DNA from: Longimicrobiales bacterium | GTDB taxonomy: Bacteria; Gemmatimonadota; Gemmatimonadetes; Longimicrobiales; Gaopeijiaceae | NCBI GenBank assembly: GCA_965198065.1 | Contig: CBDAON010000004.1 | Location: 32,001 to 96,000, forward strand | Length of the DNA: 64,000 nt | Reading direction: 5' to 3' | Shown here: positions 57,125 to 64,000 of the stretch, piece after piece | How the letters are laid out: the number at the start of each line of letters is the position of its first letter | How positions within the stretch are numbered: the stretch's first letter is position 1 | Translations under genes and position numbers: made by a program | Notes under the pieces: model-generated | Told to the model about the DNA's origin: nothing | Database searches by the model: none | What the model saw: the letters and a program-made list of their open reading frames with translations, nothing else

Positions 57125-58138
57125 TCAGAAGATGGCGAGCGGGTTCAGGGGAGAGCCTGTGGCTCCCGGAACGGCGAGCGGAGCGGCCACGAGCAGGAAC
57201 TCCCAACGCTGATGCTCTTGCGCGGCCGCGGCCAGCGCCTCGAGGTCCAGGTTGTCGAACAGGGGAAGCCCCATGGCCACCAGGGCGAGCTGGTGGATCG
57301 GCATCGAGACGCCTTCCACGCCTGAGGGGAGCACGTCGTTCGTGTAGTCACTGCCGAGCACGGCGACCTGACGCTGGTGAAGCCACGCTGCGACCGACGC
57401 GTGCAGCCCCGCGGCGAGGCGGCCGGTGGCCCAGGGACCCTCGACGTCGCGGCGCGCCCACCGACCGCTTCGGATCAACACGACGTCCCCGCTCCGGATG
57501 GTGATTCCGGTCTCGGCCTCCCAGGCCTCCAGGTCTTGCACGAGGATCGGTGTGCCGGGCTCGAGATAGTCCAGCCCCCGAAGGCGCGCGACGTCGACCA
57601 GGACTCCCCGTGTGACGATCCCGCTCTTGGCCGCAGTAATGGCCAGGCGTCCACAGCCGTTGTCCTGATCGTAGGCGTCTCTCGAGAAGCCGTTGTACAT
57701 GATGCCCTGGCTTGCCATGTGGCACAGCGCATCCAGGTGGCTGTGCGCATATCCGTGATACGACACCTCGAACCGGTCGCTCACGAACGAGCCAGCCCCC
57801 GTGCTGAGGAGCTCGTGCCCGAAGGGTGAGGTCGCGTCGGCAGCCTCCTCCTTGATGTAGTCGTGGGACAGGGACACCGAGACCCCCGTCCGAACCAGCC
57901 GCGTGGCCGCGACGCTCACCTGGGGCGTAATGAAGTTCAGGGTCCCCCGCTCGTCGGCGCGCCCCCAGCGACCCGCGTTCGAGAGCTCCACCATCCAGCG
58001 CTCGACAGTCTCGCTCGTGACCGCGGGCGGCTCCTGCGCCCGGGCCGGAGAGAGGGGGATCGTGGCCGCGAGGGCCAGGAAGGCGACCGCTCCGATGGAC
58101 GGGGAACGTCCCGTCCGCTCCTCCCATCGAGTGCTCAT
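57125..58138 (-). CDS. Cyclase / kynurenine formamidase-like metallohydrolase with a signal peptide
   Basis: RWG.DERGTLN, HSHLDALCH, RGVLVD, GATGSPLNPLA. Confidence 0.88.
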   Translation of the reverse strand: MSTRWEERTGRSPSIGAVAFLALAATIPLSPARAQEPPAVTSETVERWMVELSNAGRWGRADERGTLNFITPQVSVAATRLVRTGVSVSLSHDYIKEEAADATSPFGHELLSTGAGSFVSDRFEVSYHGYAHSHLDALCHMASQGIMYNGFSRDAYDQDNGCGRLAITAAKSGIVTRGVLVDVARLRGLDYLEPGTPILVQDLEAWEAETGITIRSGDVVLIRSGRWARRDVEGPWATGRLAAGLHASVAAWLHQRQVAVLGSDYTNDVLPSGVEGVSMPIHQLALVAMGLPLFDNLDLEALAAAAQEHQRWEFLLVAAPLAVPGATGSPLNPLAIF

Positions 58139-58311
58139 CTTTCCCCCTCCCCTGCCCGCGTCATTACGCGTGGCGTAGAGACAATTTCGTCCGACCGGCC
58201 TTCCTGGCAGACAGTCCTCGCCGACAGTAGGAGGGGCGCGTCCCGGCAGCAAGGGAGGGCGGCCGGGTGTGGAGGAACACGCGACCGGGGACGGACGGGC
58301 ATGCGAAGACG

Positions 58312-58989
58312 TCAGGCCATTCCCCCGAGGTAAAGGAAGAACACCCATTTCGCGAGGGTGAGGGCAAGCCAGACCGTGCCCACGGAGACGAGGGCGGCGC
58401 GGAGCGGAAGTCCCGGTCCGTTCTCGAGCGCGAGGATGAAGATGCCCGCCCACGCCAGATCGAATACGGAGACCTGGGTGGCGAGGAGGTACACCGCTCC
58501 CGGAACGTCGCTCCCCAACCTGAGCAGGCCGGCCAGGGAGCCCGGTAGCTCTTGGGGCAGTCCCTGAAGAAGCGCGGCGGGAGGGAGCCCGGCCAGCCAG
58601 TGCGTCTGGACGATGCTGCCCGCCAGGAGGGCGAAATGGGCCCATAGGGCCGCGCGAAAGATCCGTCCGATCGGAGGGTTTCGGATCCACGGGAGGAGCG
58701 CGAGCTGGACGATGAGGGACACGAGCCCTGCTCGTACGACGACTCCGACGGGCGCGAGCAGGTAGGTCAGGCGCTCCCACCGGCGGGCCGCCTCGACACC
58801 TGCTGATCCGGCCCCAAGGAGGGCGGGGAAGAGGTCGTCCCCGATCACGATCCGGTTCATGTACGCCACCGAGGCTACCTGGAGGCCAGCCATTAGGACC
58901 ACGAGCTGCCAGGTGAGGAGCCGGGGCGCCGTGGAGGCGTCCGCGTCCGGCGCGCGAAGGTCGTCCGACCCGTCAGGCCCCGCGGTCAC
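58312..58989 (-). CDS. Yip1-like multi-pass membrane protein at the end of the bacteriocin-like cluster
   Basis: About 5 hydrophobic helices; start overlaps the PCAT 3' end; family call is by architecture only. Confidence 0.6.
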   Translation of the reverse strand: MTAGPDGSDDLRAPDADASTAPRLLTWQLVVLMAGLQVASVAYMNRIVIGDDLFPALLGAGSAGVEAARRWERLTYLLAPVGVVVRAGLVSLIVQLALLPWIRNPPIGRIFRAALWAHFALLAGSIVQTHWLAGLPPAALLQGLPQELPGSLAGLLRLGSDVPGAVYLLATQVSVFDLAWAGIFILALENGPGLPLRAALVSVGTVWLALTLAKWVFFLYLGGMA

Positions 58990-60882
58990 CGTGGCTCCTC
59001 ACCTGAACGGGGACGTTACGAACAAGCTGGCGGATCTCGCCAGGACGGCCCTCGCCCCTGACCCGTCCGGCCTCGAGCAGGTAGACGTGGTCGGATCGAT
59101 CAAGAACGTGGGCATCGTGGGACACGACCAGCACCGCGTGTCCGACCGCATATGCAGTCAGCGCCTCCATCAGCACAGTGGCCAGCCGCCCGTCGATGGC
59201 ACCGAGCGCCTCGTCCACGAGGAGCACCTCCGGCGTGGTGGCCACGGCCCTGAGGAAGCCGACGATCTGCCGCTCGCCGCCGGACAGGCGTCGGCCGTCC
59301 TCACCCACCCGGGTGTCCCATCCGGCCGGGAAGCGGGTGAGGAAAGAGGCCAGCCCGAAGCCCGCGGCCCAGGCCGTGAGCCCATTCAGGCGTTCCGGAT
59401 CGCGACCGAGCAGGACGTTGTGACCCAACGTCCCGCGAAAGATTCGCGGGCTGCCGGGGCAGAGGGCGATGCGCTTCCGGTACTCTCCGAGCGCGTACTC
59501 CTCGGCCGGCGCGCCGTCCACCAGCAGGCGCCCCGCGGTGAGCGGGATGAGCCGCGCCAGGGCCCGCATCAGGGTGGTCTTGCCGGCGCCGTTCGGGCCG
59601 AATAACGCCGTGAGCCGGCCGCGGGAGACCACGAGGTCGATCCCTTCCAGCACGGGACGCCCCGGGGGCCACTCGACCGTGGCGTCCCTCAGCCGGAGCT
59701 CTCGCGTGACCCGGAGTGGCGTCCGCCCCCCTTCGAGCGTCTCGGGCCGGGCCAGGACCACGTCGAGGAGCCGGTGGGCCGATACCGACGCCTCCTGGAA
59801 GGTCCCCACGGCACCCACGAGACGGTCAGCGGAAGGAAGCATCCCCCCGAGAAGGGAATAGCCGGCCACTAACTCGCCCAGTCGCAGGGTCCCTGAGTCG
59901 CCACGTGGCCCCGAGAAGAAGAGTCACGTAGACGGGAACCGCGGCGAGCGCCAGCACCGCCAGGGGCGGAGCGAGGACGGCGAGGAGCACGAGGGATCCG
60001 GCAACCACGAGGCCGTCGATGATGACCGTCCCGAGCATCTCCGCAAGCGGCGTCCTGAACCCGGACCGCCTCGGCTAGGCGGACCGTGACGTCGCCGGTC
60101 GCGCGACTCTCGAAGAACCGGAGGGGGAGCCGGAAGAGGCGCGCGAGAAAGTCCTGATTCATCCGGCTGCTCACGGCGCACTGAAGTGAGATCAGAAGCC
60201 CTCTACGCACATGGCCCAGGAACGTGCGGAGGACGAGCAGCGCCAGCAGGAGCTCGCCCGTCGCCGCGATCATGAGCGGGTCCCCCTCGGGGATGAACCG
60301 GTCGATGATCTGCTGGACACAGAGAGCCGTCACGAGCCCCAGGGCCGTGCCCGTGGCCCCGAGAAAGACGGACTGGACGATCCAGGCGCCGTGGCCACGG
60401 GCGTACCCCGCCAGCCATGGGATCCAGCTTCCCGGGGGCGCCCGGCGGAGCTGGGCCGTGGGCTCGAGGAGCAGAGCCGCGCGGCTGGTCCAGAGACGCT
60501 CCATCTCCCGGCGCTGCAGGGTCTTTGGGCCCGCCGACGGGTCTCCTAGGGAGACTCGATGCGCATCCGCGTTCCACCAGACCGCGTAGTGCGCGTCACC
60601 CTCGCTCGAGGTGAGGTGAACAATGCACGGGAAAGGCTGACGGGAGACCACCTCGTCGTACGAGCCGCGAACGCCTCGCGCCTCGAATCCGAGGGCCTCC
60701 GCGGCCCGTTTGAGCCCCCAGAGGGTCGTCCCCTGCGCATCGGTGAGCGCGAGCTCCCGTACCTCGACCAGGCTCGTATCGCCGCCCCAGTAGCGGAGGA
60801 TCGTGAGCAGGGAAGCGGGCCCGCAGTCCGTCGGCTCATGCTGCCGAACGAGAGGGCGCCGCCTAGGGAAGACGCGGATCAC
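58973..60882 (-). pseudogene. C39 peptidase-containing ABC transporter (PCAT), frameshifted with an apparent internal deletion
   Basis: QHEPTDCGPA (Cys), AHY (His), GDP (Asp); TMD FFESRATGD; NBD GPNGAGKT, LSGGERQ, LLVDEA; spread over three ORFs with breaks near 60048 and 59890. Confidence 0.9.
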
Positions 60883-61628
60883 GGGCCTCCTCCCGTGATC
60901 CGCAGGAAGACGTCCTCAAGAGCCTCGCTCCCGTCGGTTCCGTGCCGTTGGCGGAGCTCGTCCGGCGTACCCTCGAACCGGAGCGCCCCGTCGTGGAGGA
61001 TCGCCAGCCGATCCGCGAGACCCTCCACGATCTCGAGCACGTGTGTGGTAAAGAGGACGGCCCGCCCGCGGTCACGCATAGAGATCACGGTCTCCTTCAC
61101 CCGGCGTGCGCTGGCCACATCCAGTGTGTTGGTGGGCTCGTCTAGGATGAGGACCTCCGGCTCGTGCACTGTCGCGGCAAGGAACGCGACCTGCTTTCGC
61201 ATGCCCGCCGAGTAGGTCCGGATCGGGGCGTCTGCGACCTCTGCCAGCCCGAAGGTCTGGATCCCTCGCTCAATTGCCGCCGCCCGCTCGGACCGTACGC
61301 CGCGCAGCTCGAGGATGAACTCCAGGAGCTCCCGGCCCGTCAGCTGCGGATAGAGCACGGGAGTCTCGGGCAGGTATCCAACGCGTCTGCGGGCCCGATG
61401 GATTTCCGAGGAGCGGAGGCTCGATCCCAGGATCCGGGCGTCCCCGGATGTCGGGTTTCGGAGTCCCATCAGGAGGTGCAGGGTCGTCGTTTTGCCCGCT
61501 CCATTCCGCCCCAGGAGGCAGATGCACGTGGCGGGGGGCAACGTGAATGTGAGGCGGTCCACCGCCGCCCGGGCACCGTAGCGCTTGGTCAGCCCGACGG
61601 TCTCGATCGGGATGGGTTGAGGCGTCAA
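60879..61628 (-). CDS. ABC exporter ATP-binding protein (TTG start overlapping the permease stop)
   Basis: GRNGAGKTT, YSAGMRK, LILDEPT, TTHVLE, LEDVFLRIT. Confidence 0.92.
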   Translation of the reverse strand: MTPQPIPIETVGLTKRYGARAAVDRLTFTLPPATCICLLGRNGAGKTTTLHLLMGLRNPTSGDARILGSSLRSSEIHRARRRVGYLPETPVLYPQLTGRELLEFILELRGVRSERAAAIERGIQTFGLAEVADAPIRTYSAGMRKQVAFLAATVHEPEVLILDEPTNTLDVASARRVKETVISMRDRGRAVLFTTHVLEIVEGLADRLAILHDGALRFEGTPDELRQRHGTDGSEALEDVFLRITGGGP

Positions 61629-63335
61629 GGCTCCATCCGGTTCGACCACGGGAGCGCCCATCCTGCCAGGAGTGTCGCCCCGCCACCTACGCACACGACT
61701 AGCACCCCCACCACGGCGCTGAGATGAGCGCCCGAGAGCGCGCCGGCACTCTTGAGGGATCGGGCGACCAGGTAGATGGAACCCGTCGCGCCGCCCACCA
61801 TCGCGTAGAGCGTCTTCGCGGCGAGGGAGGCACCGGGCGGCACCCCACCGCCCCGCTCGAGGCCCGGCAGAAGGAATCCGAGCGAGGTCCCGAGGATGGA
61901 GAAGAGAAGGCCTGCTGCGACCGCCTCCGCCGCGAGGAGGGGGACGTCGGGCGCCGGGAGGCCCACCGCCCGCCCGCCGAGAAGCACGAGCACGACGTAC
62001 GCGACGGCGTGACTGACGCCGAAGAGGGCGGCGCCCAGGACCTTGCCCTGGAATAGCCTGGCCGGGGACACAAGAGGCCGGAGAAGCGCGATGCCCTCGC
62101 CTTCCTCCCCGAGGGAGCCGAGGGAGCGCCCAGCCGCGGTCCATCCGACTCCGAACAGAAGGGCGGCCTCGAAGGCGAGAGTGTGGCCGGGACCCGACTG
62201 CGGGCCCCCGAGTCGGGATGCCACGACCAGTCCCGCGAGCAGTGCGGCCACGGGGATCACCTGGCCCTGGAGGTAGGAGAGCGGATCCCGCCGCACGGGA
62301 AGAGCCACGTCCTTCGTCCAGAAGAGGCGAGCGATCGTGGCGCCCGCGGGCCACGCGCCACCCAGCCGCCCGAGTGCCGAGAAGGCGCTGACATAGCGGG
62401 GAACGCGGATGGCGTGCAGATCGATCGGGAGGTCGGCCAGGGCGCTCCCCCTCCACCGCCAGACGGCCCGGCCGGCCAGCGCCGCCGCCAGCGTGGCGGT
62501 CCCCCCCCAGGTAAGGGTCACCCACCACGCTCCGCGGCCGATCGAGTCGGCCACCGCCGCCGGAGCCTGAAGGAGGTAGAGCCAGCGTGGGCCCGCGAGC
62601 CCGAGAGCGGCTACCCAACGCGGCGCCTGATCGAGCAGGACCGTCGGGAGGACCACGAACAGGGGGAATGTCAGGAGGAAAGGCACGATCGTGAGCCGCT
62701 GGATGCGCCCGGCGCGCGCTCCTGCGCCGGTGCCGACAATGACGGCCCGGAGCACCGCCGCGACGAGCGCGCCGAGCGCTCCGGACCAGGCCAGAGCCGT
62801 GGTCCCGTGGCCGATCAGCGTCCAGCCGGGCGCAGGCCCCACCCCGACGAGGAGATGAAAGTGGAACAGGTAGAAAGAACGCCCAGAGATAGAGCGAGAT
62901 CAGCGCGATCGACTCCGCTACTGCGAGAGCGGCGAGGTCCGGTAGGACCCACGGGTGAGCGAGGAGGGGATCGTCATGCCGCCCGAGCACCAACCCCTTC
63001 AATAGCTGGGCCACCAGCATGACCACGAAGCACGCGGTCAACCCCACGTGCGCGAGGATCAGCGCACCCCAGCGGGAGGGCTCATCGAGGTCACCGCGCC
63101 CGAGGCCCCAGTCGCCCCGAGCAAGGTGCCAGACGGACGGCACGGCCAGGGCCCGTGACTAGTAGCATGACGCGCCCCTGGAGCGTTCCAAAGGCTTTGT
63201 CCACGAGGTCACGGGCCCCGATTCGGTACCTCCCCAGCGCGCGAGACAGAGAAACCGAGCCAGCGCGGGGTCGCCGGACGCCGGAGTCCTCCGCCAGGCG
63301 ACCCCTGCGTCGGGCCTCGGGGGCCGCCCGCTCAC
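61625..63335 (-). pseudogene. Large polytopic ABC-exporter-type permease with frame disruptions
   Basis: C-terminal part 61625-62870 (ARLFWTKD..RRDP, SLGEEG..LLRP..GK); N-terminal TMs in another frame to 63143; probable true start GTG 63335 overlapping the precursor-2 stop. Confidence 0.7.
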
Positions 63336-63535
63336 CGGAAGCGGGCCAGCCCCACTCTCGGCGAGGTCGCGGCGGCCAGCGTGCACGCCACCAGAGTTTT
63401 GTTCACGGTCAGAAGAAACCCCGTGACCCCGTAGAGCATGGTCGCGGCGATCGACACACCGAGCGTGACGCCGCACGTGGTCCACCCCACTCCGGCCGAG
63501 ATCCGCTCCATTTCGATTCTCCGGAGCTCGCTCAT
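63332..63535 (-). CDS. Bacteriocin-like precursor peptide 2 (67 aa, double-glycine-type leader)
   Basis: MSELRRIEMERISAG leader (ELxxxEMxxIxAG); hydrophobic core with Cys21/Cys51; ATG overlaps the precursor-1 stop. Confidence 0.82.
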   Translation of the reverse strand: MSELRRIEMERISAGVGWTTCGVTLGVSIAATMLYGVTGFLLTVNKTLVACTLAAATSPRVGLARFR

Positions 63536-63738
63536 CGCATCCCCCCCAGGACCCGGGACCGGAATGCGGTCACGCACGAAAGGAGGCCGCCCCCGTAAGC
63601 AATGAGTGCGATCTTGCTCAGAGGATCAGGTTGTAGCGCCAGGTAGAAGGAGGAGACGATGCCGAGCCCGCAGGCGACCCCGGACCAGAAGCCGTCGCCG
63701 GCCAGACCCGTCATCTCGGGGTGTGTCAACTCCGTCAT
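63532..63738 (-). CDS. Bacteriocin-like precursor peptide 1 (68 aa, double-glycine-type leader)
   Basis: SD AAGGAGG; MTELTHPEMTGLAG leader; core with GxxxGxxxG and Cys23/Cys55. Confidence 0.85.
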   Translation of the reverse strand: MTELTHPEMTGLAGDGFWSGVACGLGIVSSFYLALQPDPLSKIALIAYGGGLLSCVTAFRSRVLGGMR

Positions 63739-63753
63739 GGTTTGCCCTCCTTC

Positions 63754-64000
63754 TCACGGATCCCGAGCTAGGTACTCGAAGGAGCGGGGTCCGACGCTCC
63801 CCCGGGTGCGCTCCGGGCCCACCGGAACGCGCCCGAAGGATTCATGGCGTCGGGGTGCCCGACCATGGCCGGATCGGCCTTCGGTGTACCGACCGAGGAG
63901 TGGAGGTCGAGCGGGGGGCGATGCGGGAACGGGGGTGGCGTCGTGCACCCGCGCCGTTGAAATTCCCTCCCGGAACTGCCCGGGCCCACGCGCGACGATG
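63754..64000 (-). other. Possible 3' end of an upstream cluster gene entering from beyond the window
   Basis: Minus-strand frame open from 63999 to TGA at 63754, ending just before the precursor SD; no recognisable motif. Confidence 0.25.

Follow-up and report, generated by a model that had tools for sequence, protein, structure and literature searches.

A conserved pair of putative two-cysteine bacteriocin precursors encoded beside a C39 transporter in a two-membrane bacterial lineage

Near one end of the window (the whole 64,000-nucleotide stretch of DNA that was analysed) lies an operon, encoded on the minus strand, in which two small precursor genes, here called P1 and P2, precede four genes for membrane and transport proteins. 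Read in the direction of transcription, its features are as follows.

63746..63752, minus strand: Shine-Dalgarno-like sequence AAGGAGG preceding P1
63532..63738, minus strand: P1, A-type precursor of 68 aa, with a 15-aa leader ending in GD in the window strain and a core containing C23 and C55
63541..63547, minus strand: G-run within the P1 tail, placed where a ribosome-binding site for P2 would lie
63332..63535, minus strand: P2, B-type precursor of 67 aa, with a leader ending in AG and a core containing C21, C51 and the motif CGxxxG
61625..63270, minus strand: orphan multi-pass membrane protein of about 550 aa, likely an ABC-2-type permease (start approximate)
60879..61628, minus strand: ABC ATPase of the DrrA/ABC-2 type, an open frame with Walker A, signature and Walker B (start inferred)
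58973..60882, minus strand: C39 peptidase-containing ABC transporter (PCAT), broken, with the catalytic Q/C/H/D kept
58312..58989, minus strand: Yip1-like membrane protein of about 225 aa, open frame

The P1 core reads as a helix, a PDP turn and a second helix, followed by a species-specific 9-residue tail. As a preliminary description of this DNA had stated, the two leaders align with E3-L4, E8-M9 and L/I12 in common and with GD (P1) or AG (P2) at positions 14-15, and the second Cys follows the first after about 30 residues, the spacings being 32 (C23/C55) and 30 (C21/C51). Trp is found at core position +3 in P1 and P2 alike, three Arg lie downstream of the second Cys in both, the net charge of the cores is +3 in P1 and +4 in P2, and the two reading frames overlap at ATGA. 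The GxxxG motifs pointed out earlier are present, but in P1 and P2 alone they show no excess over shuffled sequences (two in the P1 core versus 1.3, p 0.38; one in the P2 core versus 0.5, p 0.45); summed over homologues, which are kin and not independent of one another, they number 47 versus 21 and 43 versus 12. No promoter or terminator consensus was found at 62900-64000, and the spacer between P2 and the permease folded no better than shuffles (z -0.25). A 108-aa ORF at 63159-63485 was considered as a further gene and rejected, its end being the first piece of the broken permease.

To follow the peptides beyond the window, we combined peptide and permease searches. P1 had one clear relative (G036) among 60 other genomes, and a peptide profile matched 19 of the 401 genomes of the order, one of them spuriously; G716, matched at an E value of 7e-4, was dropped because it lacks the operon. 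A permease profile matched 20 of 314 genomes from one family of the order, spread over 9 of its 81 genera, and 3 of 401 genomes across the phylum, where it added G197 from another family (a repeat search gave the same three). The preliminary description had taken P1 and P2 for a two-peptide pair, and such pairing is kept throughout: an A-type and a B-type gene adjoin, one of each, in 21 of 21 operons (20 genomes in one family and one outside), the B gene being frameshifted in G623. Where the contig allows, the peptide genes are followed by those for the orphan permease, the ABC ATPase, the C39 exporter and the Yip1-like protein, in that order, several copies being truncated or split; the A gene comes first in 7 operons and the B gene in 14. 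Four genomes (G272, G197, G717 and G738) were reached via the permease and not via the peptide profile, and all eight of their A and B peptides contain both Cys. A search of 1.84 billion representative sequences gave 39 matches, of which 24 were used, all with two Cys, while 15 long, short, frameshifted, duplicate or marginal forms were left out. The A set is partly circular in this respect, as the profile contains the Cys and the ORF filter required a leader and an early CG. In the counts that follow, each genome contributes one A peptide, P0003 stands for the window species, and the extra copies in G706 and G197 and the frameshifted B of G623 are excluded.

These extra copies are a second A-type precursor in G706 (L051:2862-3372) and a shorter second B-type precursor in G197 (L016). 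Five further A-type cores (P0005, P0018, P0021, P0023 and P0024) carry an N-terminal extension of 20 to 33 residues that resembles a signal peptide, strongly hydrophobic and with a basic start in four of the five, with a leftover double-glycine-type leader behind it; such cores have possibly been rerouted to Sec export. On plasmids, neither the permease nor the Yip1-like protein had relatives and an A peptide gave only a match at E 0.9. Viral contigs held no relatives, and a metagenome scan gave a single 14-residue match (L018), which was not counted.

Both the Cys and the leader residues are conserved among the homologues. The Cys pair is present in 20 of 21 A cores and in all 20 B cores, with a spacing of 30 to 36 residues in the genome-linked set; the exception is the A peptide of G570, which has no second Cys in an operon whose transport genes are unbroken. 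Every A core (21/21) contains GxxCG and every B core (20/20) CGxxxG. In the leaders, positions -12, -7 and -4 are hydrophobic and -2 is Gly (19/20 A, 16/18 B and 24/24 representatives; the B leader filter demanded G or A at -2), which together make up the pattern recognized by PCATs (PMC6363468; PMC10885120). This pattern is more than chance, with the Cys pair, the leader positions and both motifs (GxxCG and CGxxxG) retained in homologues. The early Trp is a different case, as it is shared by P1 and P2 but is not family-wide (14/21 A, 5/20 B). Cores are 42 to 53 aa long, near-neutral and very hydrophobic (GRAVY 0.67-1.56), and extend 2 to 16 residues past the second Cys. Within a genome, A and B cores are 10 to 26% identical, and in a tree of 20 pairs they fall on separate sides (support 95/88). 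Since the A and B profiles nonetheless align over 59 columns, leader included, with a probability of 97.3%, the two are likely old paralogues. Their co-inheritance (Mantel r 0.90) is what linkage alone would give.

The last residues of the leaders vary more. A leaders end in GG (12), GM (4), GE (2), GI (1), GR (1) and ST (1), and B leaders in GG (7), GS (4), GM (3), GA (3), AG (2) and GL (1), so that 26 of 41 have GG, GA or GS, the canonical C39 sites in reviews (PMC10885120, PMC7018657), and 15 have another ending. Five genomes with non-GG sites (G682, G688, G621, G677 and G717) have their permease and PCAT each in a single frame, which argues that relaxed sites are not just a product of decay.

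Strain variation was assessed by comparing contigs of 4 runs from 4 studies, among 15 runs, across 58200-64000. X1, X3 and X5 cover P1 and P2 whole and X8 covers 63273-63646 only; X1 does not differ from the window and may come from its source sample. In X3 and X5, a T>C change at 63695 turns codon 15 of P1 into Gly, and the P1 site also reads GG in P0003, P0004 and P0006. The GD of P1 is therefore a one-base strain allele, while no run listed a difference at the AG site of P2. Non-GG sites as such are nevertheless common family-wide. The suspicion that the tails were read-through artefacts can be set aside: the contigs of these 4 runs show no listed indel within P1 or P2, so the tails are real DNA and not sequencing read-through. 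As a shared feature of the peptides the cationic tails fare worse, being confined to the window species (one A core of the 20 with two Cys, and one B core of 20), and elsewhere the cores have a median charge of +0.5 (A) and +1 (B). DNA junction comparison showed that in three relatives the A-type core ends directly after AF, and in G621 and G622 it extends 4 to 5 residues further. The distance from Cys to the next start is shortest in the window, 41 nt versus 47 to 112 nt, and in keeping with this, the loss of a stop codon together with the spacer would account for the P1 tail as well as for the ATGA overlap. In P2, the tail stems from a 30-nt (10-codon) in-frame insertion ahead of a terminal FR-stop that G621 and G622 have as well. 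The overlap had been read as translational coupling for 1:1 synthesis. Of the 21 operons, however, a single one has it; the rest have spacers of 26 to 83 nt in which the Shine-Dalgarno sequence sits, and as the gene order also flips, the overlap gives no evidence for selected 1:1 coupling.

The window's own copy of the operon shows signs of decay. In its PCAT gene a base is inserted at 60049, and 260 nt that are present in X3 and X5 are absent between 59887 and 59888; the break lies downstream of the C39 domain, and about 84 residues are lacking in comparison with the protein of G197. The permease has three frame switches, near 63232, 63152 and 62874. This amounts to four frameshifts and one deletion in about 4.3 kb. 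As a background, 20 gene matches outside the operon in the same genome, together 26.6 kb with overlaps partly counted double, contained a single frame switch. The inserted base at 60049 recurs in X8, a contig from another study with the window's P2 alleles, although X8 has low depth and a separate gap at 60272. The small indels of the window operon sit in short homopolymer runs. X3 retains the break at 63152 and X5 has another at 62129, so that a fully open permease was seen in none of the compared strains of the window species. With both exporter and permease broken, the window copy is likely non-functional, as far as the sequence indicates.

Damage is also seen in the operons of relatives, at L010 (G036), L049/L061 (G665), L050 (G673), L027 (G643), L031 (G570) and L039 (G623), although some cases may be assembly errors. 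In these operons a truncated exporter is fused to what is left of a Yip1-like gene, IS-like ORFs adjoin the peptide genes, a start codon or a second Cys is lost, or the B gene is frameshifted.

The preliminary description had seen in both precursors a Cys...Cys helical hairpin, and the helix-turn-helix plan is kept in both lineages, in AlphaFold models of low confidence. With the P0003 (P1-family) alignment, AlphaFold2 placed helices at 17-35 and 40-65 (pLDDT 67, pTM 0.38), and for P2 at 16-35 and 38-57 (pLDDT 62, pTM 0.30), with a short leader helix ahead of the helix-turn-helix in both lineages. In these low-confidence models the Cys lie 14 to 18 residues on each side of the turn, roughly symmetrically, which is compatible with a cross-hairpin disulfide in A and B cores. 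A predicted complex of the two cores scored 0.06 versus a mark of 0.32 and is counted neither way.

Database comparison linked the peptides to bacteriocins at sub-threshold levels. Neither P1 nor P2 matched PF10439 (Bacteriocin_IIc) or TIGR03949, and no family member reached their cut-offs, the best homologues scoring 23 bits versus 27.1 and 14.3 versus 21.5, respectively. Sub-threshold Bacteriocin_IIc matches were found in 11 of 18 picked homologues, one B homologue weakly matched PF17508 (MccV, E 0.009), and ESM Atlas neighbours at 0.89-0.90 bear bacteriocin names. In PDB sequence searches, the best match of the A profile was to the leader region of the carnobacteriocin B2 precursor (E 0.078) and that of the B profile had an E value of 0.41, the permease profile had none, and Foldseek of the P1-family model against PDB gave nothing at E <= 0.001. 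Readings as daptide (MpaA1) or BlpC were rejected, as their matches were far too weak and modifying enzymes are absent.

Among the partner proteins, the permease gave no Pfam match better than E 0.035 in 10 homologues and no NCBIfam match in 3. We take it to be ABC-2-like because of its partner ATPase, for which the best NCBIfam match is DrrA (below the cut-off), and of a likeness in motifs. The catalytic Q, C, H and D are kept in 19 of 19 aligned C39 domains, and no active-site change tracking the non-GG sites could be seen by eye. In the window genome, which is 87.6% complete, the operon's C39 domain is the only one. In five tested genomes of the 21, no HlyD-type membrane fusion protein (MFP) gene scored above the TIGR01843 cut-off, and weak MFP matches, TolC-type (OEP) genes and, in all five, DsbA-like Thioredoxin_4 genes lie away from the operon. 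The Yip1-like protein had no match to Pfam Yip1; its homologue in G197 lies at 0.93-0.94 from Yip1-bearing ESM Atlas clusters, a language-model lead only. Its closest Atlas cluster is a Bacteroidota hypothetical protein. The permease directly follows the peptides, and no small dedicated immunity gene was seen in an unsystematic view of the short ORFs. Nor does the five-gene layout include a sensor kinase or regulator gene.

On the sequence evidence, A and B are a real, conserved peptide pair, in which the tails, the overlap and the GD ending are local and the relaxed sites extend beyond one locus. We propose, with a probability of roughly 0.6, that the pair, with P1 as its A and P2 as its B member, is a gallocin A-like bacteriocin of two peptides that acts on membranes. 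Gallocin A consists of two Cys-closed hairpins with few charges, for which disulfide and synergy have been shown, and forms a class IIb subgroup with brochocin C and thermophilin 13 as well as ABP-118 (PMC10100652); this plan has so far been described from Gram-positives. The A/B operons resemble this subgroup in having two different double-glycine-type precursors together with a peptidase ABC exporter, and in the long, sparsely charged cores, which have a Cys close to either end and are predicted to form antiparallel helical hairpins (PMC10100652). They differ in their two-membrane host, in the core length of 42 to 53 aa, in lacking a small GIP-type immunity gene and a two-component regulator, in having the orphan permease, ATPase and Yip1-like genes, and in the many leaders that end in other than GG, GA or GS, with no curated family cut-off reached.

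In the proposed mechanism, leader removal and core export would both fall to the C39 transporter of the operon, with cleavage after residue 15 even where this is Met, Glu, Arg or Asp. Because no membrane fusion protein is linked, the cores would be released into the periplasm, where a DsbA-like protein encoded elsewhere may oxidize them. A and B cores would fold as helical hairpins, likely disulfide-closed, and act together on the membranes of rival cells, the orphan permease and ATPase might serve as an immunity or peptide-extraction pump, and the Yip1-like protein could be an export helper. The lack of a linked MFP or TolC in the five genomes weighs against this reading, as it offers no route past the outer membrane of a two-membrane cell. 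A more detailed version is tentative, and we doubt that it holds in every part: the peptides would be two-peptide, disulfide-stapled membrane toxins of two-membrane bacteria, the C39 domain would naturally accept a bulky or charged residue just ahead of the cut (Gly-Met, Gly-Glu, Gly-Arg, Gly-Leu, perhaps Gly-Asp), delivery would be periplasmic and MFP-free, the ABC permease would extract or export the oxidized hairpins, and some relatives would be Sec-rerouted.

Two groups of Gram-negative peptides offer partial parallels. Bacteroidetocin loci have four genes, for toxin, PCAT, a 5-TM protein and a thiol oxidoreductase (PMC6671954). Like the A/B operons, they come from a Gram-negative host, have a leader of 15-16 aa and at least two Cys, and combine a PCAT with a five-TM accessory protein, with no immunity peptide and no HlyD named in the main text, homology of the TM proteins not being implied (PMC6671954). 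Unlike the A/B peptides, they are single class IIa-related peptides with a linked thiol oxidoreductase (PMC6671954), whereas A and B form an obligate-looking pair, lack a linked oxidoreductase and are accompanied by a further ABC system. Class II microcins of the MccV type share the double-glycine signal (15-18 aa), the PCAT and, in some, disulfides, but use PCAT with MFP and TolC, GG/GA sites and a membrane immunity protein (PMC12219008). The term "two-peptide" was not found in the text of that paper (PMC12219008). A survey of marine Gemmatimonadota reported Nif11-type bacteriocins, microcin annotations and lasso peptides (PMC11316326), and we found no literature on the A/B family itself, in a search that did not extend to subscription journals and with supplementary catalogues that could list such peptides.

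Other readings of the pair were weighed against this one. The peptides might not be weapons at all but envelope-resident hairpin proteins or signals, with the PCAT delivering them to the periplasm or the inner membrane and the orphan ABC system handling them there. Linked MFP or TolC genes in 0 of 5 genomes, near-neutral and very hydrophobic cores (GRAVY 0.67-1.56), related A-type peptides with a Sec-like signal in front and the lack of a visible immunity peptide would all suit such a role. We nevertheless regard it as unlikely, given that a patchy spread (20/314 genomes, 9/81 genera) and repeated breakage or loss (G000, G036, G665 and G673) fit a dispensable competition locus, that the five-gene layout comes without a sensor kinase or regulator, and that bacteroidetocins kill from four-gene loci with no HlyD mentioned in the main text (PMC6671954). 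Ancient paralogues could also act separately, either as two single-peptide, disulfide-containing microcin-like toxins or with one hairpin as a decoy that neutralizes the other. The alignment of A and B over 59 columns (97.3%), the extra copies in G706 (A) and G197 (shortened B) and the variable gene order and spacing are in line with this idea, and the gallocin immunity peptide GIP has also been modelled as a hairpin (PMC10100652). It is made quite improbable by the retention of both lineages, each with an export leader, in 21 of 21 operons, and by the invariant Gly pattern that each has of its own (GxxCG in 21/21 A, CGxxxG in 20/20 B).

Cyclization of the cores head to tail, as in circular bacteriocins and carried out by the large membrane protein and the Yip1-like protein, appears very improbable. 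Clusters for circular bacteriocins do contain transporters, unknown hydrophobic proteins and often Yip1 (PMC8659200), and Cys near both ends would draw the termini together. Yet the SpoIIM/DUF95 gene that defines such clusters (PMC8659200) had no match among the scanned operon proteins, permease and Yip1-like protein included, the operon does encode a C39 exporter and leaders of the double-glycine type, and the second Cys is followed by anything between 2 and 16 residues.

If the two-peptide bacteriocin reading is right, the gallocin-type disulfide-hairpin class IIb plan of lactic acid bacteria would also occur in a two-membrane lineage that is uncultured, and the family would provide C39 proteases with a relaxed P1 site, which could serve to remove leaders and to probe the strictness of the double-glycine rule. 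The 21 natural peptide pairs are small enough for synthesis and testing. Signal mining patterns that demand G[GAS], as in PMC12219008, would miss 15 of the 41 precursors. The operons also raise the question of how PCAT cargo passes the outer membrane when no fusion protein is linked.

As to the surroundings of the operon (window 57125-58300 and L001 10000-11917), it is flanked on one side by what are presumably a lipoprotein-signal-peptidase-like gene and a hemolysin/CBS-like gene, and on the other by a cyclase-family gene and a pyruvate carboxylase-like region. The same neighbours are found in G272, G623 and G678, and in G036, G592, G641, G643, G682 and G688 the operon instead lies just before a PfaD-like and polyketide-synthase-like pair. 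The cyclase-family gene past the operon of G272 (L015:12004-12576) looks internally deleted in comparison with that of the window.
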